Sequence record: NZ_CP124633.1
Source of the DNA: a plasmid
Strand: one strand, 5' to 3'
Length of the DNA stretch: 64,000 nt
The stretch's first letter is position 1; each line of letters starts with the position of its first letter. Below the pieces are notes generated by a model. It was not told the DNA's origin, made no database searches, and was given only the letters and a program-made list of their open reading frames with translations. Of the stretch, positions 5,817-64,000 are shown one piece after another. A program made the position numbers and the translations under genes.

Positions 5817-8755
5817 TCGTCCTGGCACTCCACTGCCGGTTGGTCTGGGAAATTAATTGGGAAGGGCGGCAGGCCGCGCGCCTTGTCGAGATCCGCTGCG
5901 ACCTGCAAGGCCGCCTCGAGCTCGTCGCAGCCGGTGGCTTGCATGATGTTGTAGCGCTGGTTCTTTTCTTCGTTTTCGGTCATGGCCAGGGCCAGGTAGA
6001 GACTCGGGGGAACCACACGGAAGAGGTACTCCTTGCCCTTGGCCAGGAGCACGCCCTCGGTGAATTTGCCGCTTTCCTTGCGGGCCGAGAGCATCATCGA
6101 CTTCTGCGCCGGCGACAGCTCGCGGAACCTGGAGATCTTCTCTACCTCGTCTGGGGGCATGTTCAGGCACAACCACCACTCGATCATGTTCAGCATCGGC
6201 GCCCCGGAGGCTGGGATGTCGTCGATGTTCTGGGTGGCGAGCCAGAACCAGGCGCCCAGTTTCCGCCACATCTTGGTGATCTTCATGGCGTAGGGCAGCA
6301 GCAGCGGGTGCTTGGTGATGATGTGTCCCTCATCGGTGATCTTGACGATGGGCCGGCCCTTGAATTGGTCGCGTTCGGCGATGTTGTTTACGGTGTTCAG
6401 CAGCGAGATGTAGGCGATCCCGAGCTGGGCGGCGTAGCCTTCGCGCGCGTAAGTCGCGAAATCCACCACGGTGAGGTCGGCTTCAGGCCAGGGCGTGCCT
6501 TTGCGATTGAACATCTCGCCGTCGGCGCCCATGCAGAACATCTGCATGGCTTCCGCCATTTCGGCCAGGCGCGCGCGCCGTTCTGGCGCGGAGCCATCGC
6601 TCCTGGAGGCCTCGTAGAGCGCATCGCGCACGTCCTGGGTGAGCACCGTGCGGTTCGCGGCGGCGCAGGTCCTGGCCGCCGCCAGAATCGCCTGGCGGAT
6701 GGCGCTGCGATCGGCACGGGTCAGGCGCGCGTCTTCCTTCTCTTCGCCGCCGGTGATCATCAGGCGCGCGACGATCTCCATCTCGCCGAGGATGTCTCGT
6801 TGATCGTCCTCGAGGTCGGCCTTGCTGCCCTGGACCGAGTCCGAGGCCTCGATGTCTTCGGCATCCAGGACCTTCACCTGGTCGGGACTCTCGACCAGCT
6901 TGATGGCGTCCGCGAACGGCGCCAGGCTGACGCCGGAGCCCGGGGCGAGGCGGACACGGTGGACCGAGAGGCCAAACCGCTTGGCGAAGTCGGCCAGCAG
7001 GCCGAAGCTGTTGCCCGCTTCCGCGACGAACATCCGTGGCAGGTACATGGCGAGCATCTGGCTGATGAGGTTGGTCAGGGACGCTGACTTGCCGGACCCG
7101 GTTGGGCCGAAGATGAAGCCGTGGGCATTCATCTGCCGGTCCAGCTTGTTGAACGGGTCGAAGGTCAACGGCGCGCCGCCACGGTTGAACAGCGTGAAGC
7201 CGGGGTGTCCGGTACCGGTGGTGCGCCCCCAGATGGGCGACAGGTTGGCGATGTGCTGCGCGAACATCATCTGGGTGTACCACTCCAGGGCTCGCTTTTC
7301 GTTCGGATCGAAATTGCAGGGCAGCCAGCGCAGGTAGCTGTTCAGCGGTCCCACTTCGTTCTGCGGTTCGACCGGCACCAGGCCGGCGCCGAGCAGCACG
7401 TTGCTCAGGGTGATGCAGCGCTCCTCCAACTGGGTATGGTCGCGGCCGCGCACGAACAGAGCGATCGAACCGCGATAGAGCTTGTGCTCCCGGCCGATCA
7501 GGCGGCGAACGGTGGCCACGTCCTCGCGGGTGTGGATCGAGGCCTGGTTGTCACCAACGGCCTTTTTCGAGAGCTGCTGCAGATGCCCTTCCAGCATGTC
7601 CTGCGGCGTCACCACCATGGTGATACACAGCAGCGTATCCTCGGGCATGCGATCGAACAGGGCGTTCAGGCCATCACCCTTGAGCGTCTCGCCGGTGAAA
7701 TGCCCTGTCAGCGGCGCCTTGTTCAACTGGTCGACCACGATCACTCGGTGTGGCATGGCATCGAACAGCCATACGCCCTGGGTGGCATCGGAAACAGGCT
7801 GCCGATAGAACAGGTTCTGGGAGAAGTCGGTGCCGTCGGCCAGCGGCAAGTCATCCTGCAGGATCGGTTCGTCCGGCCGGCATACCAGTTCGTAGAAGCG
7901 ACGTAGATCCGCATCGGTCTTGCCGAGGTGATCCGGGTGCGGGTTGAACCAGCGGATCAACCAGTTCCTGATCTCCTGTCCGCCCATGCGCGAAGCGACG
8001 ATGCCGGCGTTCGCCAGGCCGCCTTGGATACGCTCGCAGATGGACTTCAGGTACGCCGCCGGGTCCTGTCCGCGAATCTGCGCATCCGCCTTGCGGATCC
8101 GGCGGTAGACGACCATCCGCACGCGCCGCTGTTGTCCTCGCCAGGGCAGCTTGCTGACGGCGGTGTCGACGAACAGTCCGCCCGGCTTCGAAATGCCCTC
8201 CAGGTGATGCTTCATGAGCGCCAGGTACATCTCGCTGAAGGCTGATCCTCGCGCTCGAGGATGGACGTACTGCCTCAACTGCTCCTGGAAATTGTCCCAG
8301 CTGATCTCGTCCTGGGCGTAGAACTGGACGATCCAGGGCGAGGTTTCGTGCTCGTCGAAGGAGTTCTGCAGGGCTTCTTTCAATGCGTCCCGGGCGTTCT
8401 GCATCCAATTGGGATCGCGACCCTCGGTGCCCAAGGGCACCAGCTCGAAGAAGACGGCACGCGAACGTCCATCTTCCAGGAGCATCACCTGTTCGTCGGG
8501 CAGGTACTCGGCCCAGGGCAGCAGGTCGACGAACGATGGGTCGTGATCGTAGAGGCGTGACGCTTCAGCCTGCGTGGCGCCATTCTTGCTCCCGGTGTTG
8601 GGTAAAGGGATACCCATGGCGGCCAGTCGCGCCAGATAGCGCTCAGTCGCTTCTTCCACGGCCGCTACGTCCAGCGCTCCTGAATCTTCGGGAGCGTCTG
8701 CCGGTACCGACTGAGGCTGTGTGCGACCGCGCAGAAGGGTTTGAAAAAGGCCCAT
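5813..8755 (-). CDS. Conjugative transfer ATPase (TraC/VirB4-like, ICE PFL_4706-type).
   Basis: 981 aa starting MGLFQTLLRG at 8753-8755 with RBS GGAGGACTACTG. Walker A GPTGSGKS. The 1175-aa track ORF carries a spurious Arg/Pro-rich N-terminal extension. Confidence 0.9.
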   Translation of the reverse strand: MGLFQTLLRGRTQPQSVPADAPEDSGALDVAAVEEATERYLARLAAMGIPLPNTGSKNGATQAEASRLYDHDPSFVDLLPWAEYLPDEQVMLLEDGRSRAVFFELVPLGTEGRDPNWMQNARDALKEALQNSFDEHETSPWIVQFYAQDEISWDNFQEQLRQYVHPRARGSAFSEMYLALMKHHLEGISKPGGLFVDTAVSKLPWRGQQRRVRMVVYRRIRKADAQIRGQDPAAYLKSICERIQGGLANAGIVASRMGGQEIRNWLIRWFNPHPDHLGKTDADLRRFYELVCRPDEPILQDDLPLADGTDFSQNLFYRQPVSDATQGVWLFDAMPHRVIVVDQLNKAPLTGHFTGETLKGDGLNALFDRMPEDTLLCITMVVTPQDMLEGHLQQLSKKAVGDNQASIHTREDVATVRRLIGREHKLYRGSIALFVRGRDHTQLEERCITLSNVLLGAGLVPVEPQNEVGPLNSYLRWLPCNFDPNEKRALEWYTQMMFAQHIANLSPIWGRTTGTGHPGFTLFNRGGAPLTFDPFNKLDRQMNAHGFIFGPTGSGKSASLTNLISQMLAMYLPRMFVAEAGNSFGLLADFAKRFGLSVHRVRLAPGSGVSLAPFADAIKLVESPDQVKVLDAEDIEASDSVQGSKADLEDDQRDILGEMEIVARLMITGGEEKEDARLTRADRSAIRQAILAAARTCAAANRTVLTQDVRDALYEASRSDGSAPERRARLAEMAEAMQMFCMGADGEMFNRKGTPWPEADLTVVDFATYAREGYAAQLGIAYISLLNTVNNIAERDQFKGRPIVKITDEGHIITKHPLLLPYAMKITKMWRKLGAWFWLATQNIDDIPASGAPMLNMIEWWLCLNMPPDEVEKISRFRELSPAQKSMMLSARKESGKFTEGVLLAKGKEYLFRVVPPSLYLALAMTENEEKNQRYNIMQATGCDELEAALQVAADLDKARGLPPFPINFPDQPAVECQDE

Positions 8756-9174
8756 CAGTAGTCCTCCGTGCGCTCGCCCGGCATGGCGTACTGGACTCGC
8801 TGGTAGAAGGGGAACACGGTGGTATAGCCCGGTACCGGGGCGGGATCGCTGCCGGCTAGGTGCGGGAACACATACATGACCAGGTCGGGATTGGGCAGTC
8901 GTTTGAACTGGCTGTGGATCTCGTTGCTGGCCGTGCGGGTGTAGTCGGCCTGGTCGTTCGCGGAGGCAACCTGCTGCGGATTGATCGGGCGCCGCAGCGT
9001 TTGCCTGGCATCGAGGAGTAGCCGGCCACGGCTGTTGCCTATCGAGCTGGTTGCACCTTGTTCCCAGACGTCGAGCATGTTGGCCTCGCCGTGGGGCAGC
9101 ATCTCCTCCTTGCTGGTGGAGCACGCTGCCAGGGTTAGCGCGCAGGCCAGGCCGGCGCAGAGACGAAGAAGGGG
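8755..9174 (-). CDS. Conjugal-transfer lipoprotein (TIGR03751-like) with no canonical start codon.
   Basis: Signal peptide and lipobox PLLRLCAGLACALTLAACS are encoded in frame immediately after the TAA stop (9175-9177) of the upstream gene. No ATG, GTG or TTG lies before the ATG at 9100-9102. That ATG has GGAGG only 2 nt upstream. ATGA overlap with the TraC-like start. Confidence 0.5.
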   Translation of the reverse strand, partial: PLLRLCAGLACALTLAACSTSKEEMLPHGEANMLDVWEQGATSSIGNSRGRLLLDARQTLRRPINPQQVASANDQADYTRTASNEIHSQFKRLPNPDLVMYVFPHLAGSDPAPVPGYTTVFPFYQRVQYAMPGERTEDY

Positions 9175-52705: not shown

Positions 52706-54597
52706 CGGTCTTCCAACCGAGTGAGCAGCCACTTCGCCGTGGCTTCGGCGAGGCCCGCCTTCCAGCGACCATCGGCGAAGCGTGTCATGTGGGCGGTCAT
52801 GTCGGGCCAGTTCAGGTTCGTCGCTATGGCTCCAGAGCGAATCCGTTCCATGAACCAGTGGTATGCCTGGCCGGCAGGGGAATCGGCCGGCACGGGGTTA
52901 TTATCGAATTCGCGCAATTGCACCGTGGAAAGGTGCTGGGGATTCCAGGGCCTACCTAGAGGCTCGCCATGTTCACGCCTGAGCTCCAATTCGGCAGAGG
53001 CCAGTGGGCGGCCAGCCTCACGTACTGAGAGCAGTCGGCAGTCTCCTCGATAGGCGGCCTGGTCGTAGCTATCTATGCAATGGGCCAGCGCGATATGTTC
53101 GGCGTAGAGGGCGGCAGGGCAGCGGAGCTCGACGATCTGCAGGCCATTGGGGCAAGCGATAAGGCCGACAGGCAGCATTCCCTCCCAGGTGGTGTACTCG
53201 TCGGTGTCGACCAGATCGGGCAGGCTGCTCTGCACTGCGGCGCGCAGTTCCCTCTGGACCTGGTGGTAGTCGTCCACCAGGTTGCCAGCCTGTCGGTAGG
53301 TACAATGACCCAGGTACGCCTTCAGGGCGCTGCGCGCCTGCCGAACAACCTGTGAGCTCCCCTGGTCGAGGGCGGTATAGAACTCCTTGATGTCTCTCAG
53401 GCGTGCAGTGATTGCAAGCCATGCCGGATCCTGCCAATCCGACGGGCAGCCGTTGAAGAGACGGTTGTAGTCGGGCTTGGCGTTGTGAACTTGCCAAGGG
53501 ATCGCATTGTAGGCGGCATAGAATGCTGTCCATTGAGCGCGAGTGATCGGCCGCCGGTTACCTAGCGATGCTGCCATAAGGAGAGTATGCCATCCCGAAT
53601 ATCGGCCTTCCCGTTTGCGATGGAAGAGAGCTCCTCCCGCACGGCCGGGACTGACGTGACTAAGAAATCGAATCGAGGCCCGTGGCGCCTGAAATAGCCA
53701 GGCGAAAAAGTTGATGACCGAAATCCCTTCGTCCGCGACCTGCCCAAGAATACGGGCCATATCGAGGTTCAAGTCGCATGGCACGGCGGCGGCCTGCGGT
53801 CGTTCACTGTCAAGCAGGGAAAAAGGGCAAGGAAGGAAATGGCAGATGCTCTCGCCGTTGTCGTTGGTCGTCGTGTGGGGCCAGACTCCCTCCTCGCAAT
53901 CCACCAGTAGCGGCGTCAAGACCGGCTGAGTCTTCAGCATTTGCAGCCGGCGCATCTGGTCGCCTTGAGCCAGCCAGTTGTAGAGCTGGGGCGAGAGGCA
54001 CCGAACCGAGCGGATGGCGAACAGCAGATCTTGGTCCAGGACCTGTCTGAAGGTTCGCAAGACCGCTCCGATCTGCTTCAAGTAGAACCGGCGTCTCGGT
54101 GAGTAGTATCGATTGTGGCTGACTGATGGATACTGACTCTTGGGGAATGAGCCGAGGTCCTGACGCGCTAACTGAGTGGCCAACCCCTGTGCCCTCTGGG
54201 TGTAGGAGCTGAGCACAGGAACGGCATCGTCGAACTTCTTGAGGCGCTGCAGCAGCTTCAACGCTCCGGCTGGGGACGGCGTGCTTGCAGGGATACGATG
54301 GGCAGGTTTGCACTCCCACGCACCGATCAGTTGACCGTCGAAGACCTGGAGCAGAGGCCCTGCGCGCATGATGGTGTAACGCACACCATTATCCGCAGCG
54401 ACGGTGATGCACCAGCACCTGGTCGTAGAGGTGCTGCGCAGGTAGTGACGGATGAACTTGGTTCGAGCTGTCCCTGCGAGGGAGAAATGCGTTGCCCAGG
54501 TGTTGGCAACGGCGAGCTGCCGCTCGCTGTAACGGGCCAGAGATGGATCCTGTAGCGGCCCGCTAGGGGAGGCGTTGTCGAGTGGTGCCACGCGCAT
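52702..54597 (-). CDS. Large hypothetical protein (631 aa), translationally coupled to the SNF2 helicase.
   Basis: Long ORF with mixed composition and several Cys/His pairs. No motif recognised by eye. Confidence 0.55.
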   Translation of the reverse strand: MRVAPLDNASPSGPLQDPSLARYSERQLAVANTWATHFSLAGTARTKFIRHYLRSTSTTRCWCITVAADNGVRYTIMRAGPLLQVFDGQLIGAWECKPAHRIPASTPSPAGALKLLQRLKKFDDAVPVLSSYTQRAQGLATQLARQDLGSFPKSQYPSVSHNRYYSPRRRFYLKQIGAVLRTFRQVLDQDLLFAIRSVRCLSPQLYNWLAQGDQMRRLQMLKTQPVLTPLLVDCEEGVWPHTTTNDNGESICHFLPCPFSLLDSERPQAAAVPCDLNLDMARILGQVADEGISVINFFAWLFQAPRASIRFLSHVSPGRAGGALFHRKREGRYSGWHTLLMAASLGNRRPITRAQWTAFYAAYNAIPWQVHNAKPDYNRLFNGCPSDWQDPAWLAITARLRDIKEFYTALDQGSSQVVRQARSALKAYLGHCTYRQAGNLVDDYHQVQRELRAAVQSSLPDLVDTDEYTTWEGMLPVGLIACPNGLQIVELRCPAALYAEHIALAHCIDSYDQAAYRGDCRLLSVREAGRPLASAELELRREHGEPLGRPWNPQHLSTVQLREFDNNPVPADSPAGQAYHWFMERIRSGAIATNLNWPDMTAHMTRFADGRWKAGLAEATAKWLLTRLEDR

Positions 54598-54910
54598 GCT
54601 CCTGTGTAAGCGAGCAGCACTGTGGCTGGTCGGTGTGCTACGGATCGATGGGAAATGTTCAGGCCACGCGGCCTGTATTTCTTTGGATTACGAGGCCAGG
54701 AACACCAAGTGGACGCTGAGAGTCACTGCAAAGAGAATTAAAACGGTGAAGCTGAACATCATGACCTTCATGGCCACTGACCTCAAAAGGAGCCCCCGAC
54801 AGGCCTGTGTGCGGGAACAGGGTGTCGGGGGCGGGGAACACGCCGGGGATATACAGCGTGTATGGCTGAGCGTAGCTGGCCCGAATAGCGATGCAAGTCT
54901 GACAGCGAGC

Positions 54911-55663
54911 TCAGCCTGAAATGAGACATTTCAGCCTTGCCTTCCAGCCTCGCGGTTGCTCTTCAGATGGTTTTCCCCGAATGAGGTCGATGAGTTGCTC
55001 CCTCGCCTGTGCTTCATTCAGGGATCTTTCCTCCTGGGTCTTGAGGTTCAACCAGTTCAATGTGGTCTGGTAGGTGTCCATTTTCCAGCCAGCGGTATCT
55101 TCCCGACCCAACTGCAAGCGCTCCGGATGAACTTGCACAGGCAGCCCTTGTAGCAGGACCTGTTGCCGGAGTTGCCCGTACAGGCGGTAGAAGGCGTCGT
55201 TGACCTGGTAGTGGTTGAGCGTCACGTCGTGGAGCTGGCTCTTCTGCTGCTCGGCCAGGAAGAATCGAGCAATACAGGTGCGGTGGTTGCCGTCGGAGCC
55301 GACGTAGAAATTCAAGCCATCGAGTGTGTTGTAGTGGATCGCGGGCCTGCGCTCCGTTGGCTGCAGGTAGTAGCTCGGGTTGTCCAACAAGGCCTGCAGG
55401 TTTCGCTGCATTCGCTTGCCGCCAGTGAGGAAGTCGAGCCAGGACCTTCCCCGGTAGTCTTTGCGGTCGGTACCCACGACGCGGAACACATTGATCGATC
55501 CCGTCTCGGTCCAGTAGTGGCTTTGAAGGAAGGCGTGCTTTTCCTGGGGGTAGGCTTCCTCCCACGACAGCAGGACCTCTGATGCCCATGCTGGCGGTTG
55601 CTCGACTTGCCTGCGCACGAAGTCGAAATTGAGGTTCCTGTCGGTACTGGTCTGCATGTTCAT
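54911..55663 (-). CDS. ParB/sulfiredoxin-like nuclease-domain protein.
   Basis: ...VGSDGNHRTCIARFF... resembles the ParB N-terminal DGxHR...A motif. Confidence 0.45.
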   Translation of the reverse strand: MNMQTSTDRNLNFDFVRRQVEQPPAWASEVLLSWEEAYPQEKHAFLQSHYWTETGSINVFRVVGTDRKDYRGRSWLDFLTGGKRMQRNLQALLDNPSYYLQPTERRPAIHYNTLDGLNFYVGSDGNHRTCIARFFLAEQQKSQLHDVTLNHYQVNDAFYRLYGQLRQQVLLQGLPVQVHPERLQLGREDTAGWKMDTYQTTLNWLNLKTQEERSLNEAQAREQLIDLIRGKPSEEQPRGWKARLKCLISG

Positions 55664-55671
55664 GTATTTAT

Positions 55672-57591
55672 CTATAGCCCGCGCGGGTTGTCGAAGTCAG
55701 GTTGGCCGTTCTTGGTGGGATAGCTGACTTTGCAGCCGGTGGTGCGATAGCCGCTGCAGCCCCAGAAGTCGAAGCCGCTCTTGCCGGCTTTCTTGCGGTG
55801 GACCAGGGGCAGACCGCACTTGCCGCAGAGGAAGTCACTGGCCGGCGCCGTGGGAGCGCTGGCGGTAGAGCTTGCTCGCGGGTCGCCCTGTGCGCTGGGA
55901 TGCGCGCGCAGCGTCTGCAGCTCTGACTGCAGGAGCTGGTAGAACTGCTGGACCACGTTCATGTAGGTGTCCTCGCTGTTGGCGATCCGGTCCAAGGCGA
56001 CCTCGAGGTTGCGGGTGAAATCGAGGCTGAGGAAGCTGAAGTTGTGCTCCAGGAGCGCGATGGTGGCCTCGCCCAGCTCGCCGGGGACCAGGCTTCGCCC
56101 CTTCATCTGCACCTGGCCTTTGTCGATGATGTTCTTCACGATCGAGGCGTAGGAGGATGGCCGACCAATCCCGCGGCGCTTCATCTCGCCCACCAGGCTG
56201 GCATCGGTGAAGCGTTTGGGAGGGGTGGTTTTCTTCTCCAGGACCTCGCCGCTGTAGACCTTGAGTATCTGGCCTGGCTCCAGCGCCGGGATGGGGCTTG
56301 AAGGCGTTTCGTTCTTTTGCTCCTCGGCATCATCGCCCTGCAGCAATTTTCTCCAGCCAGGCACGTTCAACAGCTTCCCTTTGGCGCCGAAGCGCAGCGG
56401 CTTTTTGTCGGGGCCGACGCCCAGGAGGGTGATGGTTCTCACTGCGTACACGGCAGCTTCGATCTGGCTGGCAAGCGCGCGAACTCGAATGAGCTGGTAC
56501 AGCGCCTGCTCATCAGCAGTTTCACCGGCGGTAGCGGCCATCCAGTCGGTAGGGGTGATAGCGGGGTGGCCTTCCTGAGCGTCTTGGTCCGCTTTGAACA
56601 TTCGCTGTTGCTCTACACACTTCAGCCCCAAGGCTTTGGCGACAGCACGGATATCCGGCATCGAGTCCTTCGAAATATTGGGGTTGTCCGTTCGGTGGTA
56701 AGTGATGAGCCCCTGTTCATACAGCCGCTGGGCGACTTTCATCGTCTTGTCGGGTGACCACTTCAGTGCATTTCCGGCTGCCATCTGGAGCGAAGAGGAG
56801 ATGAACGGTGCCGGAGGCGTATCGGTTTCTTCGCCATCAATGCAGGTCTCGACGATCACATTGCGTATAGCCCCCACCAGTTCTGCGAGTTGACGATCCT
56901 GGACATACGGAAATTCCTTGCTGGCAAACGTGGGCACTGGATCCCACTCCGCCTTCCAGGTGCGGCCGTCGCTGGGCGAAACGAAGGCCAGTTCCACCCC
57001 GAAATGCTTGATTGGTGTGAAGGCGCGAATCTCCCGCTCTCGCAGGACCACCAGGTACACAGCGACGGACTGCACGCGCCCGGCGGTGGTTGGCCTGCCC
57101 ATCACGCGCCGCAACTCTGGCGTGACCAGATATCCCACCAGGCGATCGATGACGCGACGGCATTCCTGCGAGGCGACCTTCGGGAGGTCCAGGCGACGCG
57201 GCGAGCTGAGTTCGGCGCTGATGCATGACTTGGTGATCTCTTTGAAGGCAACGCGCTTGTAGTTCTTGATCCCGGCAGCCTGGAGTATGTGCCAGCCGAT
57301 GCTTTCGCCTTCCCGATCCGGGTCGGATGCGACGTAGACTTCCACGGCTTTCTGCCGCAGCTCCTGCAGCCGTGCGACGATTTTTTCCTTGCCCGAAAGG
57401 ATCTGGTAGTGGGGTTTGAAATCCTGGCCTACGCCGACGGTGAGCATCTGCGGATCCTGGCCGTGAACGGGTAGGTCTCTGATGTGACCGGCAGTCGCTT
57501 CGACCTGCCAGGTCACGTCGGGACGAATGGAGGGGAGAAGGGACCGCAGCTTTTTCAGCTTGCCCGGGGCTTCAATGATTACAAGGTGCAT
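55672..57591 (-). CDS. topB: DNA topoisomerase III.
   Basis: Toprim start MHLVIIEAPGK. Type IA topoisomerase core. C-terminal Zn ribbon CGKCG...WGCSGYRTTGC. Confidence 0.85.
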   Translation of the reverse strand: MHLVIIEAPGKLKKLRSLLPSIRPDVTWQVEATAGHIRDLPVHGQDPQMLTVGVGQDFKPHYQILSGKEKIVARLQELRQKAVEVYVASDPDREGESIGWHILQAAGIKNYKRVAFKEITKSCISAELSSPRRLDLPKVASQECRRVIDRLVGYLVTPELRRVMGRPTTAGRVQSVAVYLVVLREREIRAFTPIKHFGVELAFVSPSDGRTWKAEWDPVPTFASKEFPYVQDRQLAELVGAIRNVIVETCIDGEETDTPPAPFISSSLQMAAGNALKWSPDKTMKVAQRLYEQGLITYHRTDNPNISKDSMPDIRAVAKALGLKCVEQQRMFKADQDAQEGHPAITPTDWMAATAGETADEQALYQLIRVRALASQIEAAVYAVRTITLLGVGPDKKPLRFGAKGKLLNVPGWRKLLQGDDAEEQKNETPSSPIPALEPGQILKVYSGEVLEKKTTPPKRFTDASLVGEMKRRGIGRPSSYASIVKNIIDKGQVQMKGRSLVPGELGEATIALLEHNFSFLSLDFTRNLEVALDRIANSEDTYMNVVQQFYQLLQSELQTLRAHPSAQGDPRASSTASAPTAPASDFLCGKCGLPLVHRKKAGKSGFDFWGCSGYRTTGCKVSYPTKNGQPDFDNPRGL

Positions 57592-57706
57592 CGTCGGAGT
57601 CTCTCGGAACAGTCGGTCGAACTGTCGCGATTAGTGAGTGGGCCAACAATGAGAAATGAACGGTGCGTTGTTGCAGTTTTCGGGAGGTGCTGTAGAGCGG
57701 GATCGA

Positions 57707-57904
57707 TCAGAAATCGAGCTGCTGTTGCTGCTCCTGGGCAAACCCTTTCAACCAGGACGCCCGCATCGCAGGATGACTGTAGGGGCAGTCGAACACCCGT
57801 AGCCCTTTCCGCGCGGCCTCAGCACCAATAGCCCGTACAGTCCGGTGGGGATCGTTGAAGTGTCGTCTGTCCAGCTTGTCGGTACCGGTCGCTTTCTTTG
57901 ACAC
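57707..57904 (-). CDS. Ribosome-modulation-factor (RMF)-like small protein; start uncertain.
   Basis: ...DPHRTVRAIGAEAARKGLRVFDCPYSHPAMRASWLKGFAQEQ lines up by eye with RMF (...ERAHQRGYQAGIAGRSKEMCPYQ...RSQWLGGWREA). Proposed GTG start at 57902-57904 with a GAGGTG RBS. The track start lies inside a direct repeat. Confidence 0.4.
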   Translation of the reverse strand: MSKKATGTDKLDRRHFNDPHRTVRAIGAEAARKGLRVFDCPYSHPAMRASWLKGFAQEQQQQLDF

Positions 57905-57945
57905 ACTGCACCTCGTACTGGTCGAGATTTCCGAATCGGAAGTTC

Positions 57946-58390
57946 TTGCCACCAGCAACTTCACGAACGGGCGGCCAAAATTAAGGATGCTGGTTCATCA
58001 GCTGTTTCCGGTATAACTGATCATGTTGGTTGCTCCAGTCGCTGGAATGCTTGTCGATGTTGCGGGCGGCGAAGAATGGTTCTAGCCACCTGCAACTTCA
58101 CGAGTGGGCGCGGTAAATTAAGACCGGCGTTTCACCGTCGCTTCGGCAATGCGCTGAGCCACTCGGATGAAGGTCGCTCGATCTTCTTCCTCCATAAGCG
58201 CCATGCACTTCAGTACGGAGATCTCGTCGGCGCTGAGGGGAGGCCTGGTCAACGGCTCTGGGCAATGTGAACCTGCTTGGTCATCTTTCCTGTTCATGGC
58301 GGATTTCCTGTCGGGCGAGTCTTTGTAGAGGCTGCGGGCGGCGAAGAGTAGTGCTTGCCACCCGCAGCTTCACGAATGGGCGGCCAAAAA
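57946..58390. repeat. Three spaced direct repeats of about 45 bp between topB and ssb.
   Basis: R1 57946-57985, R2 58076-58120, R3 58345-58390. Consensus TGCCACC-N-GCARCTTCACGARYGGGCGG-N2-AAAATTAAG, each with a conserved GCGGGCGGCGAAGA prefix. Confidence 0.7.
58118..58297 (-). CDS. Small acidic hypothetical protein (59 aa).
   Basis: RBS GACAGGAAATCC before the ATG. Flanked by direct-repeat copies R2 and R3. Confidence 0.3.
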   Translation of the reverse strand: MNRKDDQAGSHCPEPLTRPPLSADEISVLKCMALMEEEDRATFIRVAQRIAEATVKRRS

Positions 58391-58402
58391 TTAAGCCACC
58401 TG

Positions 58403-58891
58403 TTACATGGGGATGTCGTCGTCGAAGGCGCTGTCGTAGTCCTGCTGCGAGCGCGCATCCTGCTGAGTAGGTTGCGGCGGCACCTGCCGAGTCTGCTGAT
58501 GCTGGGTCGATTGGCCATTGGTCGACGGCAACAGGGTGACCTCGGCCAGGCGATGCGGAAGGATGGAAATGCGCGAGGCTTCGACCTTCAGCGCCTGGAC
58601 TTCTTCGCCTGACTCTTTGTCGGGCCAGCGGTCCATGATCGCCCGGCCTTCGACCTTGACGCGCATCCCTTTCGCGAACAGTTCGGCGAAACGCTGGGCA
58701 TCCTGATGCCACCACTCGACGCTGCACCAGAAGCCGCCGCGATCCTTGTAGCCACCTTGGCCATCGGGAATCGAGTTGTCGAACATCACGTTCAGTCGCA
58801 GCAACTGCCGCGGGGGATTGTTGCCGTTCGGGAAGCTGCGGTGCTCCGGCGCCGAGCCGATGTTGCCTTCCCAGAAGACGGGGGTAGCCAT
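58403..58891 (-). CDS. ssb: Single-stranded DNA-binding protein.
   Basis: OB-fold core. Gln/Pro-rich tail ending in the acidic DDDIPM. Confidence 0.85.
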   Translation of the reverse strand: MATPVFWEGNIGSAPEHRSFPNGNNPPRQLLRLNVMFDNSIPDGQGGYKDRGGFWCSVEWWHQDAQRFAELFAKGMRVKVEGRAIMDRWPDKESGEEVQALKVEASRISILPHRLAEVTLLPSTNGQSTQHQQTRQVPPQPTQQDARSQQDYDSAFDDDIPM

Positions 58892-58920
58892 GATGAATCT
58901 CCAGTCGGTTGAGTCGGGGG

Positions 58921-59751
58921 TTAGTGGGTGGAGCGTGGTTTGAAGGGGGAGCGAGTGGCGCGGCTGGCCACGTACCCGAGCAGTTCACGGGTTTGCCGAG
59001 CCGTTGCAGCCAAGGTGTTGGCCATGTGCTCCTTGAACACTTCGCTGGCCAGCTTTTCGACGCCGCTGTCGTAAAGGGAGTTGAACAGCAGCTCCGCGTC
59101 ATGAGCGGAGCGCAGCAAGCCGTAGAGCAGGTCCTTGGCGATGGAGGAGCCGGCCACGCTGGGCAAGGACTTGGCGGCCACACCTTCACCGATGATCTGC
59201 CCCTGGAGGAAGTTCAGGGCCTGCTTGATCTGCTCGGGATTCGCCGCGTCCAAGGACTCGACGGCCAGGTAGTTGCATACGACCTGTTCTGTCCTGGGTC
59301 GGGCCGGCTCGCCGAGGGTGTGGTCGCGCATCAGGTCGAGGGTCTTGATAGCGAACTGGAGCAGGTGGTTGTGGCTGAGGATCTCGGGTTGCTCGATGAT
59401 CGCCTGTTCCATCTTGTTGAAGGCGTTGATGTAAGCGACCTTCCAGTGCATAGCCTCCTTGCCAGTGAACCCCATGCAGAGAAGGGTGAAGCCGTCGCGA
59501 GTCATGCGCACGTATGGCTCTGGCCTGTTGTTCGCTCCTGTGCGGGAACACTCCTCAAAATTGAGGAGTGCAAAATCCTCGGGACATTCCAAGTTTTTGA
59601 TATCCCGTAACACGTTGTCGTGCCTCTTCCGAAAATGCTTGGCGACGTCGAGGCTGGTCGTGGTGGGCTTGCCGCCGATGATCTCGACGCTGACCTCGGT
59701 GGAGGGCTGGGCTTTGGTGTTGGAAACGGTCTTGCTGCTGATGTTGCTCAT
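58921..59751 (-). CDS. Rha-family phage-type regulatory protein.
   Basis: Start MSNISSK at 59749-59751 with a GGAG RBS. ...SLDVAKHFRKRHDNVLRDI... The track start adds an Arg/Pro-rich extension. Confidence 0.6.
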   Translation of the reverse strand: MSNISSKTVSNTKAQPSTEVSVEIIGGKPTTTSLDVAKHFRKRHDNVLRDIKNLECPEDFALLNFEECSRTGANNRPEPYVRMTRDGFTLLCMGFTGKEAMHWKVAYINAFNKMEQAIIEQPEILSHNHLLQFAIKTLDLMRDHTLGEPARPRTEQVVCNYLAVESLDAANPEQIKQALNFLQGQIIGEGVAAKSLPSVAGSSIAKDLLYGLLRSAHDAELLFNSLYDSGVEKLASEVFKEHMANTLAATARQTRELLGYVASRATRSPFKPRSTH

Positions 59752-59798
59752 GTTGTCTCTCCGTTGGTGATCGTTTCGTCGAAGGTAGAGCGGTACAG

Positions 59799-60347
59799 CT
59801 ACATGCCCACGGAACCAGGGCGGGTCTGACTCTGCTGCAGTCGGCCCATGAACTCGGCCTCGGCCTGGCCCATCTTTTCCGCGCACTCGGCGGCCTGCTT
59901 GCCGATGGAGTGGATCAGGCTGATCTGCATGTTGAGGGTGATGCGCTGCAGCTCCATCTCGTAGAGGTCTTGCAGCAGGTATTCCGGGGTCTTGTCCTGG
60001 CGCAGCATTTCCGCCCACACCCCGACGCCCATCCGCCGGGTTGCAATGTGCTGCCAGCGAAGAAAGGTGGTGCGGGCGGATGTGCGCTGCTCGATGAGTC
60101 GGGTGGGCAGTAGAGTGAAGGGTGGGCGACGAACCTGGGCCAGCAGTCCCTGGGCAAGTTCAAGCAATCCCTGCTCCAGGACTTCGCACTGTTCCGCCAA
60201 CTGGGCCAGCTCCCCCTTACCTTTAAAAGGCTTTAAAAGGCCTTTTAGTGAGGCACTGTGTTGCAGCGCCTGGAAGGCAGTTTGTTGCAGTGGGCGGAAG
60301 GCACTTTGTTGCAGAGCGCCTTGCTGGTCCTTATCGAGCTGCCGCAT
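59799..60347 (-). CDS. Hypothetical coiled-coil protein with an N-terminal LQQxAF repeat.
   Basis: 182 aa. The 5' end contains three DNA direct repeats and the palindrome AAAAGGCCTTTT. Confidence 0.4.
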   Translation of the reverse strand: MRQLDKDQQGALQQSAFRPLQQTAFQALQHSASLKGLLKPFKGKGELAQLAEQCEVLEQGLLELAQGLLAQVRRPPFTLLPTRLIEQRTSARTTFLRWQHIATRRMGVGVWAEMLRQDKTPEYLLQDLYEMELQRITLNMQISLIHSIGKQAAECAEKMGQAEAEFMGRLQQSQTRPGSVGM

Positions 60348-60352
60348 TCCGA

Positions 60353-61081
60353 TCAGTCCTCGAGCTCGACACGGTCAGCGTCATCATCGGCATCACTGTC
60401 AGAGCGGCCCCGGGTGATCGGCGGAGCGAAGTTCGAGCGTCGGGTGCCCTCCAGGATGTCCTGCGGGATCTCGCCGAACTTCTCGTACATCTTCCGCGCG
60501 GCTTCGGCGCGAGCATTGTTTGCGGCGAAGTCGTCGCGAGTAGCGCCCGAGAACTGGTAGCTCTGGGCCAGACCAAAGAGGCTGCGCAGCACCGACGCAC
60601 CTTCGTCGAGCCAGACCTCCATGTCGCGGCGACCGACCAGCCCGACGTGCTGGGCCAGCAGGATTCGACGGGCGAGTTCGTCGTAGTTGGTCAGGAGATA
60701 GACTGCCTTGAAGCCGAGAGGGTTGGAGATGAACAACGGGACCTTGACCGGTGTGACGGACAGGTTCTCGGAGATATCGAGGGTCGCTGGCAGCTTGGCC
60801 ATGACGTCATCCAGCCGCTGGTCGATGGCCTTGAGTGCGGCTTGGCAGATCTCGACTTTCTCTTCGATCTGAACCAGCCACCAGTCGGAGTACGGATCGT
60901 CCTGTGCCGCCCCGCGGTGCATGCGATTCACGTAGGCGCAGAAGCCGGAGAGGCCGAGGATGCTGTGCTTGGCATCCGACTTCTGCCTGCCTGTCCAGAT
61001 GCGGGCGGCGTGATAGGTGTGAAGCGTCAGGGCGACATCGCTGCGGAGAGAGCCGATCTGAAGCCGATGGGTTTCAGCCAT
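60353..61081 (-). CDS. ICE protein (PFL_4669-like).
   Basis: Start MAETHRLQIGSL at 61079-61081 with an AGGAA RBS. Acidic C-terminus. Confidence 0.45.
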   Translation of the reverse strand: MAETHRLQIGSLRSDVALTLHTYHAARIWTGRQKSDAKHSILGLSGFCAYVNRMHRGAAQDDPYSDWWLVQIEEKVEICQAALKAIDQRLDDVMAKLPATLDISENLSVTPVKVPLFISNPLGFKAVYLLTNYDELARRILLAQHVGLVGRRDMEVWLDEGASVLRSLFGLAQSYQFSGATRDDFAANNARAEAARKMYEKFGEIPQDILEGTRRSNFAPPITRGRSDSDADDDADRVELED

Positions 61082-61439
61082 GGTGCAGTGTTCCTTTATA
61101 GGGAAGGGGTTCGGCCACATCGTGCTGATCGGGGTAGGAGCGCGCAGTAGGAAATACATGGTTCGCCGCTGGGGTATTTCCGCTGGCAGTGCGGGTTCAT
61201 CATCATCCCGCTTGCGGCTCATGGAGGTTGGCTTCCTTCAGCTCTTGGCCCCCTCGGGGGCGTTGTCTATCGCTACGTCGACGCAACTTTTGAGCTTGCC
61301 GAGCAGCTCGCTCAGTTCCTGCAGCTCCGTAAAGTCGATAGGCCATTCATCGTTGTCGTTGAATAGGGTTGCCAGCCCTAGCAGCCGCTCGAATTCGAGT
61401 TCGTCCATAGGGGCATACACGATTGAGTCGCACATCTTT

Positions 61440-62412
61440 TCGGTTCCTATTGGGTGGGAGAAGTTGATAGCCGCCACCGGCGCCGAAGTCAGTTCCTGGT
61501 GGAGTGGTTCCAGTGGAACCACCCAACTCGCCGCCGGCGCCGAAGTCAGTTCCTGGTGAAGTGGTTCCAGTGGAACCACCCAACTCGCCGTCGGCGCCGA
61601 AGTCAGTTCCTAGTGGAGTGGTTCCAGTGGAACCACCCAACTCGCCGCCGGCGCCGAAGTCAGTTCCTGGTGAAGTGGTGCCAGTGGCACCACCCAGCTC
61701 GTCGACGGCGCCGAGGCCTGGTCCTGGCGGAGTGTTGCCAGTGGCAACACCCAGCTCGCCGTCGGCGCCGAAGTCAGTTCCTGGTGAAGTGGTTCCAGTG
61801 GAACCACCCAACTCGCCACCGGCGCGGAGGTCGGTTCCTGGTGAAGTGGTGCCAGTGGCACCACCCAGCTCGTCGACGGCGCCGAGGCCTGGTCCTGGCG
61901 GAGTGTTGCCAGTGGCAACACCCAGCTCGTCGACGGCGCCGAGGCCTGGTCCTGGCGGAGTGTTGCCAGTGGCAACACCCAGCTCGCCGCCGGCGCTGGG
62001 GTCGGTCCCTGGTGGGGTGATTCCAGTGGAACCACCCAACTCGCCGTCGGCGCCGAAGTCAGTTCCTGGTGGAGTGGTTCCAGTGGAACCACCCAACTCG
62101 CCGCCGGCGCCGAAGTCAGTTCCTGGTGGAGTGGTTCCAGTGGAACCACCCAACTCGCCACCGGCGCGGAGGTCGGTTCCTGGTGAAGTGGTGCCAGTGG
62201 CACCACCCAGCTCGTCGACGGCGCCGAGGCCTGGTCCTGGCGGAGTGTTGCCAGTGGCACCACCCAGCTCGCCGCCGGCGCTGGGGTCGGTCCCTGGTGG
62301 GGTGATTCCAGTGGAATCACCCAACTCCTCGACGGCGCCGAGGTCGATCCTTGGCAGAGTGTTTCCACTGGAAACACCCAGTTCGCCACCGGTGCCGAGG
62401 TCAGGACCTGGC
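61440..62412. repeat. About 17 tandem 57-bp direct repeats; candidate pKLC102-type oriV iteron array, alternatively the coding repeats of a Gly-rich protein.
   Basis: Unit is approximately GGTGGAACCACCCAACTCGCCGCCGGCGCCGAAGTCAGTTCCTGGTGGAGTGGTTCCAGT with variants. All six frames stay open across the array. One minus-strand frame has an ATG at 62466-62468 coupled by ATGA to the upstream gene, giving (GGELGGSTGTTPPGTDFGA)n. Confidence 0.8.
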
Positions 62413-62464
62413 AGAGTGATGCGGGCCGCATCACCAAAAAACACGACGCCCGACCGAGACTTTC

Positions 62465-63796
62465 TCATGGCTCATCACCCCGCTCGGATGGCACGCTCGA
62501 TCCGTGCCTGGGCCGAATGAGGTCCTTGAGCCGGCTGAGGACTTCGTTCCCTGTCCGGGTATCCCCCTTCGGCTGAACCTGAGGCTGTGTAGGCGTTGTG
62601 GGGCTTGGTGGTGCCGGAGCACGACTGGGGCGTTCCGCTGCTGGGATGGTTCGTTCAGCCGGTTCTTCCGGAGCCCAAGAAGCGTTGAACTTTCCCTGGA
62701 CTGCACGCTGGATGAGCGTCATGAGGTAGCCGAACGGATTACCGACGGTTCCGCCGGCACATCGGTGCCGCCACTGCTCGATGATGGGTAGCCGAAGCTC
62801 CTCGGACACCCGTCGGAGCGCGCTTACCGCCTGGAACCGTTGCTCGCCCTCCAGTCCGTTCAGGAGATCCTGCCAGTTCGGATGTGCTTCCTCGCGTGTT
62901 CGCGGTTGTACTGGTTTTTTAAATACAGAATCTTGTTTGTATGTATACGTACTATATGAGTTCGGCATCCGAACCAAGGGCGTACTCGGCGGATTCTGTC
63001 TGGGTTCGGCATCCGAACTCAGCGGTAAAGCGCATTGCTTGCCGCTGATTTCACTGAGTTCGGCATCCGAACTCGGGGTTGAATGAGGTAGATCGGGCAG
63101 AGTTCGGATGCCGAACTCTGCCGCTGGATCTGCTTCGAGCTGACTATCGATAGCCCATTGCTGGTGGTTCAAGCGTCCCTCGAGCTTCTCCAGATGGGTT
63201 GGGAGGCGGCGACCAACGTCCGGGTCATCCCTGAACTCCCGCCATGTGACCTGGCCGATTTCGCGTATGGCTCGGTTGCTGTCGCCGGTGGACTGGCTCA
63301 GCAACTGCATGTAGTCGGGGTCCAGCTCCAGGGCTTCTGCCGGGGATACCGGTTCGTCGTGGAGGATGTAGACGTTGCCCTGTACTTGCCCGTTGAGGTC
63401 GTTGCGCAGGCGACGGCCGAGACTGAGCCAGCGTGTCAACCGAAGGACCTTGAGTGCCTTGGCGATGGTTTCGCGCGAGGCGATCTTACCCGGCTGCATG
63501 CCGAGATAAGGGCGTAGTTGCTCGTATGTAGGGAACGCGGTCAGCCCGTCGTCGTTGATGAGCAAGCGGAACACTTGCCAGCAGTTCCGCTCCAGCGGGG
63601 TGAGGCGTTTATCCAGCAGCAGGCGCCGAGGAACGGTTTCATGCGGGTTGCCGCTGAAAATGATGCCGGAATATTGTTGAGCCAGCGGTTCGCCGCTCTC
63701 GGCATCAAGCCGCTTCTTAAACAAGTGGGCCTCGAGATGTCCCGAGGCCGAGTCCAGCAGAGTCGAAATGGGAAAGCGCGACAGCCTCATTGTCAT
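62465..63796 (-). CDS. STY4528-like ICE/pathogenicity-island replication protein.
   Basis: 443 aa, starting MTMRLSRFPISTLLD. Conserved C-terminal block ...NPFGYLMTLIQRAVQGKF.... Contains an internal AT-rich tract and four 19-bp palindromes. Confidence 0.55.
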   Translation of the reverse strand: MTMRLSRFPISTLLDSASGHLEAHLFKKRLDAESGEPLAQQYSGIIFSGNPHETVPRRLLLDKRLTPLERNCWQVFRLLINDDGLTAFPTYEQLRPYLGMQPGKIASRETIAKALKVLRLTRWLSLGRRLRNDLNGQVQGNVYILHDEPVSPAEALELDPDYMQLLSQSTGDSNRAIREIGQVTWREFRDDPDVGRRLPTHLEKLEGRLNHQQWAIDSQLEADPAAEFGIRTLPDLPHSTPSSDAELSEISGKQCALPLSSDAEPRQNPPSTPLVRMPNSYSTYTYKQDSVFKKPVQPRTREEAHPNWQDLLNGLEGEQRFQAVSALRRVSEELRLPIIEQWRHRCAGGTVGNPFGYLMTLIQRAVQGKFNASWAPEEPAERTIPAAERPSRAPAPPSPTTPTQPQVQPKGDTRTGNEVLSRLKDLIRPRHGSSVPSERGDEP

Positions 63797-64000
63797 GGTG
63801 TCGTATCGCCTTCGGACTGAACCAGGTTGAGGAGTTGCTGCTGCGCAGACTCAATCTCCAAGCGGGGGCTCTGTGGCGGGTGAGCCGTAGGCGAGGGGAG
63901 GTGAGCGCTGACGTTGGCCAGGTAAAGGGTGGCGGGCTTGGCCTGTTCTTTCCTGTTTGGTTGGTAGAGGCTGTCTTTCAACCAGCTCTGGATGAGAGAC
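63793..64000 (-). CDS. Hypothetical protein, partial (runs off the right edge).
   Basis: Frame is open from 63793 to the end of the window. ATGA overlap with the STY4528-like start. Confidence 0.3.
   Translation of the reverse strand, partial: SLIQSWLKDSLYQPNRKEQAKPATLYLANVSAHLPSPTAHPPQSPRLEIESAQQQLLNLVQSEGDTTP

Follow-up and report, generated by a model that had tools for sequence, protein, structure and literature searches.

The plasmid sequence record NZ_CP124633.1 carries, in the 64,000-nucleotide stretch analysed here (the window), an array of 57-bp tandem repeats that sits on a string of minus-strand genes, immediately 3′ of a gene of the STY4528 family (Table 1). In the pKLC102-type order, the genes follow one another as ParB-family, DUF2857, STY4528-family, array, small open reading frame (ORF), PFL_4669/AcaB-family, DUF3158, Rha and single-stranded DNA-binding protein (SSB). 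As set out below, the array is more likely to be a loading platform for a ParB-type clamp than a replication origin or a protein gene.

Tandem Repeats Finder (TRF) assigned the array a period of 57 bp and 16.6 copies (61472–62418) with 84% matches and no indels, and reading in register resolved 17 head-to-tail units. An earlier note on this DNA had described about 17 tandem 57-bp repeats directly downstream of a STY4528-like gene, and both statements hold, the minus-strand gene adjoining the array; its coordinates (61440–62412) were off by about 30 bp at either end, and the unit that it called near-perfect matches from copy to copy at 84% and comes with six palindrome variants. The array is not one of clustered regularly interspaced short palindromic repeats (CRISPR), as the note had also recognized: its units stand head to tail with homologous spacers, none of which is unique.

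The conserved core of every unit is a 9+1+9 palindrome, GTGNTNCNN-N-NNGNANCAC. The window contains 17 matches to the core pattern GTGNTNCNNNNNGNANCAC, each of them within the array, against a chance expectation of 0.05, and the 15 perfect 19-bp palindromes of this 9+1+9 form found in the window likewise all fall within the array, in 15 of its 17 units. Six core variants are present (GGTTCCA, GGTGCCA, GTTGCCA, GATTCCA, GTTTCCA and GATGCGG), and in the 15 perfect cores the right arm bears the complementary change, so that symmetry is kept across the variants (Table 1). The two imperfect cores look like recombinants between neighbouring unit types.

A megablast search with 61200–62700 against plasmids returned six Pseudomonas aeruginosa records, among them pKLC102 (NC_019202.1), in which the same pair of genes flanks a 57-bp array (15.2 TRF copies). 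Identity of the array to Pseudomonas plasmid and integrative and conjugative element records is 83–96%, and the number of units per array is 8 in pY89, 11 in locus L005 (L numbers are our labels for related loci), 13 in p2014S05-249-1, 16 in pKLC102 and 17 in the window. The window array is another copy of the already described pKLC102 repeat region, and the alignment to pKLC102, which has a homologous 57-bp array in the same gene slot, bears out the earlier note's comparison with that element. The oriV (vegetative replication origin) of pKLC102 was reportedly described by Klockgether et al. in 2004 as sixteen 57-bp direct repeats, and 16 in-register units are what we counted in the pKLC102 sequence itself. 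With the same unit length and position and homologous sequence (88% over the matched part), the two arrays show no structural difference, and only the functional label is questioned here. The array is without RefSeq annotation in pKLC102 and p2014S05-249-1, and records of the pKLC102 type are classed by PLSDB/MOB-suite as 'rep_cluster_322'. Several draft genomes have runs of N inside their arrays (L010, 5908–6050; L028, 5797–5975; L040, 5376–5580); repeats of this kind break short-read assemblies, which makes draft-genome copy numbers unreliable.

For comparison across the family, 16 STY4528-family proteins were aligned and 80 loci recovered, one genome per species. Palindromes of the same class follow the STY4528-family gene in the 80 related loci, and in about 45 loci of the Pseudomonas type TRF detected arrays downstream of it, with periods of 34, 36, 39, 56, 57, 58, 60, 70, 72, 78, 80, 81, 100/101 and 141 bp, many of which are not multiples of three. 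The palindrome keeps its shape in all consensus units, and what varies is the spacer and the period. Sites were then picked not by pairing but by array register, which in each array was anchored on two or more perfect cores; 107 distinct 23-mers from 21 arrays were obtained. Among these, 92.3% of cells were paired against 75.0% in shuffles, and changes on both sides numbered 187 against 62 ± 6, a value reached by none of 500 shuffles; in controls with a slid register 35–49% of cells were paired. Half-site positions G3, T4, G5, T7 and C9 are conserved at 90% or more, and positions 6, 8, 10 and 11 vary with compensation. The palindromes, the variation that keeps their symmetry, and their conservation at this position throughout the family are thus seen directly in the sequences.

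Bases that vary while pairing is kept at 9 of 11 positions are the classic signature of a selected stem, and the element is transferred as single-stranded DNA and encodes SSB. Both would suit palindromes that act as structures, namely hairpins in the transferred single strand (for priming or as a single-strand origin), cruciforms, or RNA hairpins in the operon transcript. We consider this very unlikely. A 1-nt centre makes a poor hairpin loop, template-switch 'correction' of quasi-palindromes could keep the arms identical without selection for hairpins, and the homologous site of ICEclc, introduced below, is bound as a duplex, a 40-bp double-stranded fragment sufficing to stimulate the CTPase of its binding protein (PMC12409273). 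The mismatches in the palindromes show no consistent G·T-over-A·C strand bias, and an Rfam search at permissive thresholds returned sub-threshold noise only, and an RNA element was rejected as a candidate; from these two results the site looks like a dyad in duplex DNA rather than RNA.

In some elements the palindromes form two clusters, the second 1.2–2.2 kb downstream of the first (L019, 5328–5598 and 7554–7836; L052, 5204–5577 and 7602–7713; L055, 5902/5938 and 7905/7941; L029, 5401/5459 and 6584/6642), an arrangement that echoes the two bisS sites of ICEclc 2 kb apart. In L008, L013, L014, L016, L030, L054 and L031 the array begins 400–1100 bp after the STY4528-family stop, the gap being otherwise occupied, and where units measure 78–81 bp each holds two different palindromes.

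A candidate reader of such a dyad is known from ICEclc, in which Antar et al. (2025) screened for parS-like palindromes and found bisS at the summit of BisD enrichment in chromatin immunoprecipitation sequencing (PMC12409273). There, bisS binds BisD in vivo, as seen by foci and by the same enrichment, and stimulates the CTPase of BisD; BisD then spreads over about 50 kb, following the course of transcription, and with BisC switches on transfer-competence promoters (PMC12409273). The ICEclc gene order is alpA-parA-shi-bisD-bisC-orf96323-orf95213-inrR...ssb (PMC7423338). In place of an array, loci of the ICEclc-like group (L059–L084) have CTATCCCCnGGGGATAG in two or three copies, which lie immediately behind the gene and again about 2 kb further on; the exact published bisS 23-mer, GAGCTATCCCCnGGGGATAGCTC, has two copies separated by about 2.0 kb in 12 loci and a single copy in another 5, which makes 17 loci with this site. 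In ICEclc-like elements, sites of the same class are therefore identical to bisS as published, and homology and synteny extend to BisD, BisC and the genes beside them. Proteins of the pKLC102 type are 43% (ParB-family against BisD-like, full length, E 5e-132), 38% (DUF2857 against BisC-like), 54% (AcaB-family against the protein at the orf95213 position) and 52% (DUF3158 against the protein at the inrR position) identical to their ICEclc-like counterparts. The ParB-family protein has an intact GGNTR CTP-pocket motif, whose Arg is position 95 in BisD numbering; the published R95A mutant of BisD has lost nucleotide binding. Upstream of the STY4528-family gene, 78 of the 80 loci have a gene for a BisD-like protein whose helix-turn-helix (..SHISRM) is conserved, and a ParB-family gene with GGNTR intact is likewise present in pKLC102 (WP_003158178.1) and L005; the window shows only the 3′ end of the BisC-like gene.

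The identity of the slot is further marked by four perfect palindromes, GTTCGGNNNCCGAAC, inside the STY4528-family coding sequence. They occupy the lowest-GC stretch (0.495; 62900–63099), and in most related loci the same four sites recur at conserved positions with the same 44/54/44 spacing. They are of the type of the 'candidate bisS-3' of ICEclc, CTTCGGAtTCCGAAG, inside orf96323, which gave no BisD foci (PMC12409273), and this match identifies orf96323 as the STY4528-family gene. In L008, L013 and others the sites lie at about 4677/4721/4775/4819; the protein there reads EFGIRT / SSDAELS, and the DNA is conserved where the proteins are only 45–60% identical.

Array and bisS-1, which is experimentally defined, thus occupy the same slot, between the orf96323/STY4528-family and orf95213/AcaB-family genes, with syntenic homologous neighbours that include an SSB homologue. 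Both sites are perfect palindromes with a 1-nt centre and conserved T7 and C9 in the half-site, and at 19 bp the window palindromes fall within the approximately 16–23 bp of dyad symmetry of a bisS/parS-type site. Counted as differences from bisS per 11-nt half-site, the sites form a series, from none (bisS, ICEclc-like loci) through one (GGGCTATTCCCCGGGAATAGCTC, L007), two to three (the CTATTCC / CTATTCGG types, several loci) and four (GTGATTCCC, several loci) to five to six (the types of this window). CTAT-type and GTG-type sites occur at equivalent unit positions within single arrays in L007, L013, L031, L047 and L048. The differences are of number and sequence: 17 tandem copies at 57-bp spacing in the window against two sites 2 kb apart in ICEclc, several variants within the window array, half-sites that share 5–6 of 11 bases with bisS, and a neighbourhood to which the window adds the Rha gene and the small acidic ORF.

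On this comparison we think it probable that the array is a tandem, multi-copy, bisS-like docking and loading platform for the element's BisD-type ParB clamp. The array would have arisen by tandem amplification of a parS-like dyad site in the regulatory or intergenic slot between the two genes, within an integrative conjugative element of the pKLC102 type. Dimers of the element's own BisD-like ParB-family CTPase, whose gene would lie three genes upstream of the array (BisD-like, BisC-like, STY4528-family, array) and just past the window edge, would bind at the 19-bp palindromes and close into CTP clamps, which would move off along the element the way that transcription runs, towards window coordinates below 61,400. 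Joined by the BisC-like protein, these clamps could then activate transfer-competence promoters, hold the excised DNA for ParA-dependent segregation, or both, and 17 sites in place of the two of ICEclc might give a higher loading rate or local occupancy. Docking by the pKLC102-type homologue of BisD, and every step after it, is what we infer from the ICEclc work and the comparison above.

Tandem arrangement of sites for a ParB-family protein has a precedent in the sopC centromere of the F plasmid, where SopB acts on a tandem row of 12 repeats of 43 bp that each include an inverted repeat of 7 bp. As in sopC, each unit of the array has one inverted-repeat site, here a putative one, for a ParB-family protein, and the pKLC102-type element encodes ParA; the sequences are unrelated, however, and proteins of the BisD type have an activator domain in addition and act together with BisC to switch transcription. 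There is also a resemblance to chromosomal parS, which in Pseudomonas is TGTTCCACGTGGAACN (PMC12409273): the inner GGTTCCAcTGGAACC of the commonest unit is similar to parS GTTCCACGTGGAAC. The centre in the window is one base shorter (odd rather than even symmetry), which gives the half-sites another spacing, and the inner bases vary freely between units.

Several points weigh against the clamp-loading platform. Binding by BisD is documented for ICEclc only, the half-sites of the window share only 5–6 of 11 positions with bisS, and the BisD-like gene lies past the window edge. Several palindrome variants in one array are odd for a sequence-specific reader; their coexistence would be tolerable if only G3, T4, G5, T7 and C9 are contacted. 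Helix-turn-helix residues seem to track the site type (Q alongside GCTAT, S alongside GTG-type sites), but phylogeny confounds this correspondence, which also has exceptions, and it was not counted as evidence. The bisS papers found in the literature do not mention the pKLC102 repeats, so the link comes from the present comparison alone. Finally, pKLC102 replicates as an episome (PMC7685784), with no origin mapped elsewhere.

The last point leads to the function for which the earlier note had named the array a candidate, that of a vegetative oriV, in line with the historical annotation. The 57-bp repeats would then be iterons bound by the STY4528-family 'replication protein', which would open DNA nearby and let the excised element replicate as a plasmid. 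The neighbouring gene owes the name replication protein to NCBIfam, the element encodes DnaB, SSB and a topoisomerase besides ParA, a relatively AT-rich stretch (GC 0.495) with the four further palindromes lies 500 bp away in the STY4528-family gene, and an 8-kb circular record ends within the array. Known iteron-type plasmid origins, such as those of RK2, pPS10, R6K and similar plasmids, resemble the array in that direct repeats adjoin a gene named for a replication protein. They differ from it in unit length, in palindromic content and in having an AT-rich region, DnaA boxes and a Rep fold, the first two of which are absent beside the array and the last not recognized in the neighbouring protein. 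The units are 57 bp long and contain perfect palindromes, where iterons are asymmetric direct repeats of about 20 bp (17–22 bp). The array and its flanks have a GC content of 0.60–0.71 without an AT-rich unwinding element, the GC skew does not switch, and no DnaA-box-like sequence occurs within 7 kb, the nearest match being more than 7 kb off. The STY4528-family protein has no Pfam domain and no relative in a profile search of the PDB; its AlphaFold2 model, from the 16-sequence alignment, is weak (predicted local distance difference test score 63.5), and with it Foldseek found no Rep-like fold in the PDB (best match E 0.4, none below 0.1).

Published descriptions bear on the origin in both directions. 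The oriV of pKLC102, an element that reaches up to 30 episomal copies, is termed 'postulated' (PMC7685784), and the equivalent region of PFGI-1 from P. protegens Pf-5 'putative oriV', consisting of four 23-bp palindromes, CTGAGTTCGGAATCCGAACTCAGT, and four 46-bp G+C-rich direct repeats, each with an inverted repeat of about 21 bp (PMC2647930). PFGI-1 has these in the same slot upstream of PFL_4669, and both palindrome sets are also in the window, with 57-bp units × 17 here and 46-bp units × 4 there. In the literature searched, which did not include the original pKLC102 papers, we found no experimental replication test of pKLC102-type repeats. The homologous ICEclc sites bind BisD (PMC12409273), and episomal replication of ICEclc needs the TraI relaxase and oriT1 (PMC6561031). 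Nothing in the sequence supports an origin, and we consider it unlikely that the array is one; the 'oriV' label of the pKLC102 repeats is probably wrong. The oriT1 and oriT2 sites of ICEclc presumably lie near traI, far from the bisS region.

The circular record just mentioned is one of two, NZ_CP147626.1 and NZ_CP147623.1 (L086), both 8,046-bp 'complete plasmid' records that correspond to 53765–61746 of the window. They carry genes for a hypothetical protein, a topoisomerase, crpP, ssb, Rha, DUF3158, an AcaB-like protein and the small ORF, and close inside the array with about four units left; genes for the STY4528-family protein and for BisD are missing. They may be minicircles or an artefact of assembly, and, if they replicate, they bear on where the origin lies.

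A 373-amino acid (aa) ORF passes through the array, and its ATG (62468–62466) overlaps the STY4528-family TGA as ATGA, with a GGGGTGA purine run 7–8 nt upstream. The earlier note had correctly reported this coupled start and its Gly-rich repeat product, as well as an acidic tail in a different frame that ends at 61238; its statement that the array is open in every frame needs correction. Of the six frames, two are open throughout, one sense and one antisense; a further sense frame is cut by a single stop (85% of the array), and the other three are interrupted (30–58%). The ORF, with its start and Shine–Dalgarno-like run, could be read as the gene of a functional Gly/Thr/Pro-rich repetitive protein, possibly joined by frameshift to the acidic tail. 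For such a protein speak, further, a constant reading of the palindrome as G-[DGV]-x-x-G-[ITN]-T, NTGA-coupled ORFs that span 100% of the 36-, 39-, 57- and 141-bp-unit arrays and end at the start of the next gene, and pY89 and L005, in which the repeat frame enters the acidic ORF and, in pY89, PGAP annotates a coding sequence of 246 aa.

The variation in the repeats points the other way. Among 44 distinct units of the clade, entropies at the codon positions of the Gly-rich frame are even (10.3/11.4/10.5) and the synonymous fraction is 0.28, against 0.24–0.32 in the remaining five; in other clades the coding signal is likewise lacking, save for a small excess at most in the frame of the ORF. 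Compensated changes in the palindromes are mostly non-synonymous, and the repeat peptides are unrelated between lineages except for the part that the palindrome dictates. Arrays with units of 58, 80, 70, 56, 34 or 100 bp cannot keep a frame, and some others have interrupted frames, so that homologous arrays could not encode a homologue; the product of the 373-aa ORF has no Pfam or NCBIfam match. From the lack of codon signal, the non-synonymous compensation, the unrelated peptides and the frame-breaking periods, we conclude on sequence grounds that there is no conserved repeat protein, and a functional repeat-protein gene appears highly improbable.

The acidic tail is the small acidic ORF of Table 1, which is WP_003159716.1 in pKLC102 and p2014S05-249-1 and is confined to the P. 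aeruginosa/paraeruginosa clade. Two of five close relatives, pY89 (L003) and L005, have it in the reading frame of the repeats because the A-run between array and small ORF (6040–6075 in L005, 61436–61445 in the window) has three A's (GAAAGATG) and not four (GAAAAGATG). This single-A difference lies between the tail ORF's own AGGAA ribosome-binding site and its ATG, and a frameshifted fusion to the acidic tail was therefore rejected.

The stop-coupled ORF recurs elsewhere. In loci whose array comes straight after the gene, the stop codon of the gene shares bases with a start codon, as ATGA after the last codons CCA, TCA, GCA or GAA and as TTGA in the 36-bp clade, with a GGAG/GGGG run before the start. 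The ORF covers 100% of the array, and its end falls no more than about 15 nt from the conserved AcaB-family start (5985 against 5987 in L018, 6741 against 6743 in L027); in L049 it is fused in frame to the AcaB-family gene. The arrays concerned have units of 36, 39, 57, 60, 72 or 141 bp, and L012, the only long adjacent array with a 58-bp unit, is without the ORF; the lineages that share it are not fully independent. Neither half of the earlier note's alternative, a frameshifted repeat-protein gene or noncoding iterons with incidental ORFs, is quite right: the tail is an independent ORF and selection at the protein level shows in no frame, and an ORF that is stop-coupled in one lineage after another is more than an incidental feature. 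We take it as likely that translation passes through the array and couples the downstream to the upstream gene, which would favour unit lengths divisible by three.

A bolder extension of the clamp-loading platform is possible, although we hold it rather doubtful, in which the array would be both loading platform and ribosome-read: a stop-coupled 'bridge' ORF would carry translation across the sites, from the STY4528-family gene into the one that follows the array, with unit length constrained to multiples of three (36, 39, 57 and 141 bp) and the peptide left free, and the copy number of the sites (2 in ICEclc, 8–17 in the pKLC102 type) would tune the strength or plasmid-likeness of the activated element. 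The 'oriV' of the pKLC102/PAPI-1 family would then be a regulatory, centromere-like switch and no origin.

The remaining features of the neighbourhood are collected in Table 1. A scan of 60900–62700 found no sigma-70 promoter, and its sole terminator-like match is on the non-coding strand. The 5′ end of the DUF3158 gene contains, at 60251–60314 of the window, 2.7 copies of a 24-bp repeat, CTGCAACAGGnnGCCTTCCAGCC when read on the gene strand; it codes for LQQxAFxx octapeptides and is kept in nearly all loci (at about 6500–8900 in most). PF08900 AcaB, the family of the gene at 60353–61222, is that of an activator of the IncC conjugation master switch, and with an AcaB-family gene following the array, the FlhDC-like/AcaB logic (IncC, SXT) and the BisDC logic (ICEclc-type) share a component.

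Table 1. Features of the repeat region and its surroundings in the window of NZ_CP124633.1
Feature	Coordinates	Strand	Remarks
SSB	58403–58891	-	Next in same-strand gene string
Rha-family regulator	58921–59766	-	Next in same-strand gene string (58403–59766)
DUF3158 gene	59799–60347	-	PF11358; 52% identical to L062:6189-6713; position of ICEclc inrR
PFL_4669/AcaB-family gene	60353–61081	-	242 aa from MAETHRLQIGSLRS; ORF open back to 61222; PF08900 AcaB E 2e-71, TIGR03761; position of ICEclc orf95213
Small acidic ORF ('acidic tail')	61238–61435	-	65 aa from ATG 61435; 56 aa from 61408 per RefSeq; own AGGAA-N8-ATG
373-aa ORF through array	61347–62468	-	Encodes (GGELGGSTGTTPPGTDFGA)n; ends out of frame inside small ORF
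Tandem array	61472–62440	.	17 × 57 bp; unit = 19-bp palindrome + 38-bp G+C-rich spacer
Palindrome core, unit 1, GTGGTTCCAGTGGAACCAC	61504–61522	.	Identical at 61561–61579, 61618–61636, 61789–61807, 62074–62092, 62131–62149
Palindrome variant GTGGTGCCAGTGGCACCAC	61675–61693	.	Also 61846–61864, 62188–62206; left-arm T>G matched by right-arm A>C
Palindrome variant GTGTTGCCAGTGGCAACAC	61732–61750	.	Also 61903–61921, 61960–61978
Imperfect hybrid core GTGATTCCAGTGGAACCAC	62017–62035	.	One mismatch
Second hybrid core GTGTTGCCAGTGGCACCAC	62245–62263	.	
Palindrome variant GTGATTCCAGTGGAATCAC	62302–62320	.	
Palindrome variant GTGTTTCCACTGGAAACAC	62359–62377	.	
Palindrome variant GTGATGCGGGCCGCATCAC	62416–62434	.	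Inner arm: 3 changes, all compensated; unit closest to STY4528-family gene
STY4528-family gene	62465–63796	-	443 aa; NCBIfam NF040582 'STY4528 family pathogenicity island replication protein', E 3e-111; position of ICEclc orf96323
Four palindromes GTTCGGNNNCCGAAC in STY4528-family coding sequence	62960–63116	.	At 62960, 63004, 63058, 63102; spacing 44/54/44; 4 found vs 0.18 expected
DUF2857 (BisC-like) gene, 3′ end	63793–64000	-	Continues past window edge; BisD-like ParB-family gene expected just beyond

Islands of the pKLC102/PAPI-1 type spread virulence and resistance genes in Pseudomonas aeruginosa, and the 'oriV' label of their repeats has been copied between papers since 2004, apparently without a test; the present comparison calls for caution in using the repeats as a replicon marker. 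The recurrent ORF over the sites raises the question of how transcription and translation pass a ParB-type nucleoprotein complex. If BisD-like clamps do dock on the array, the repeats would mark the place where the transfer-competence switch nucleates, and this would explain the many sites in the pKLC102 branch against the two in ICEclc.

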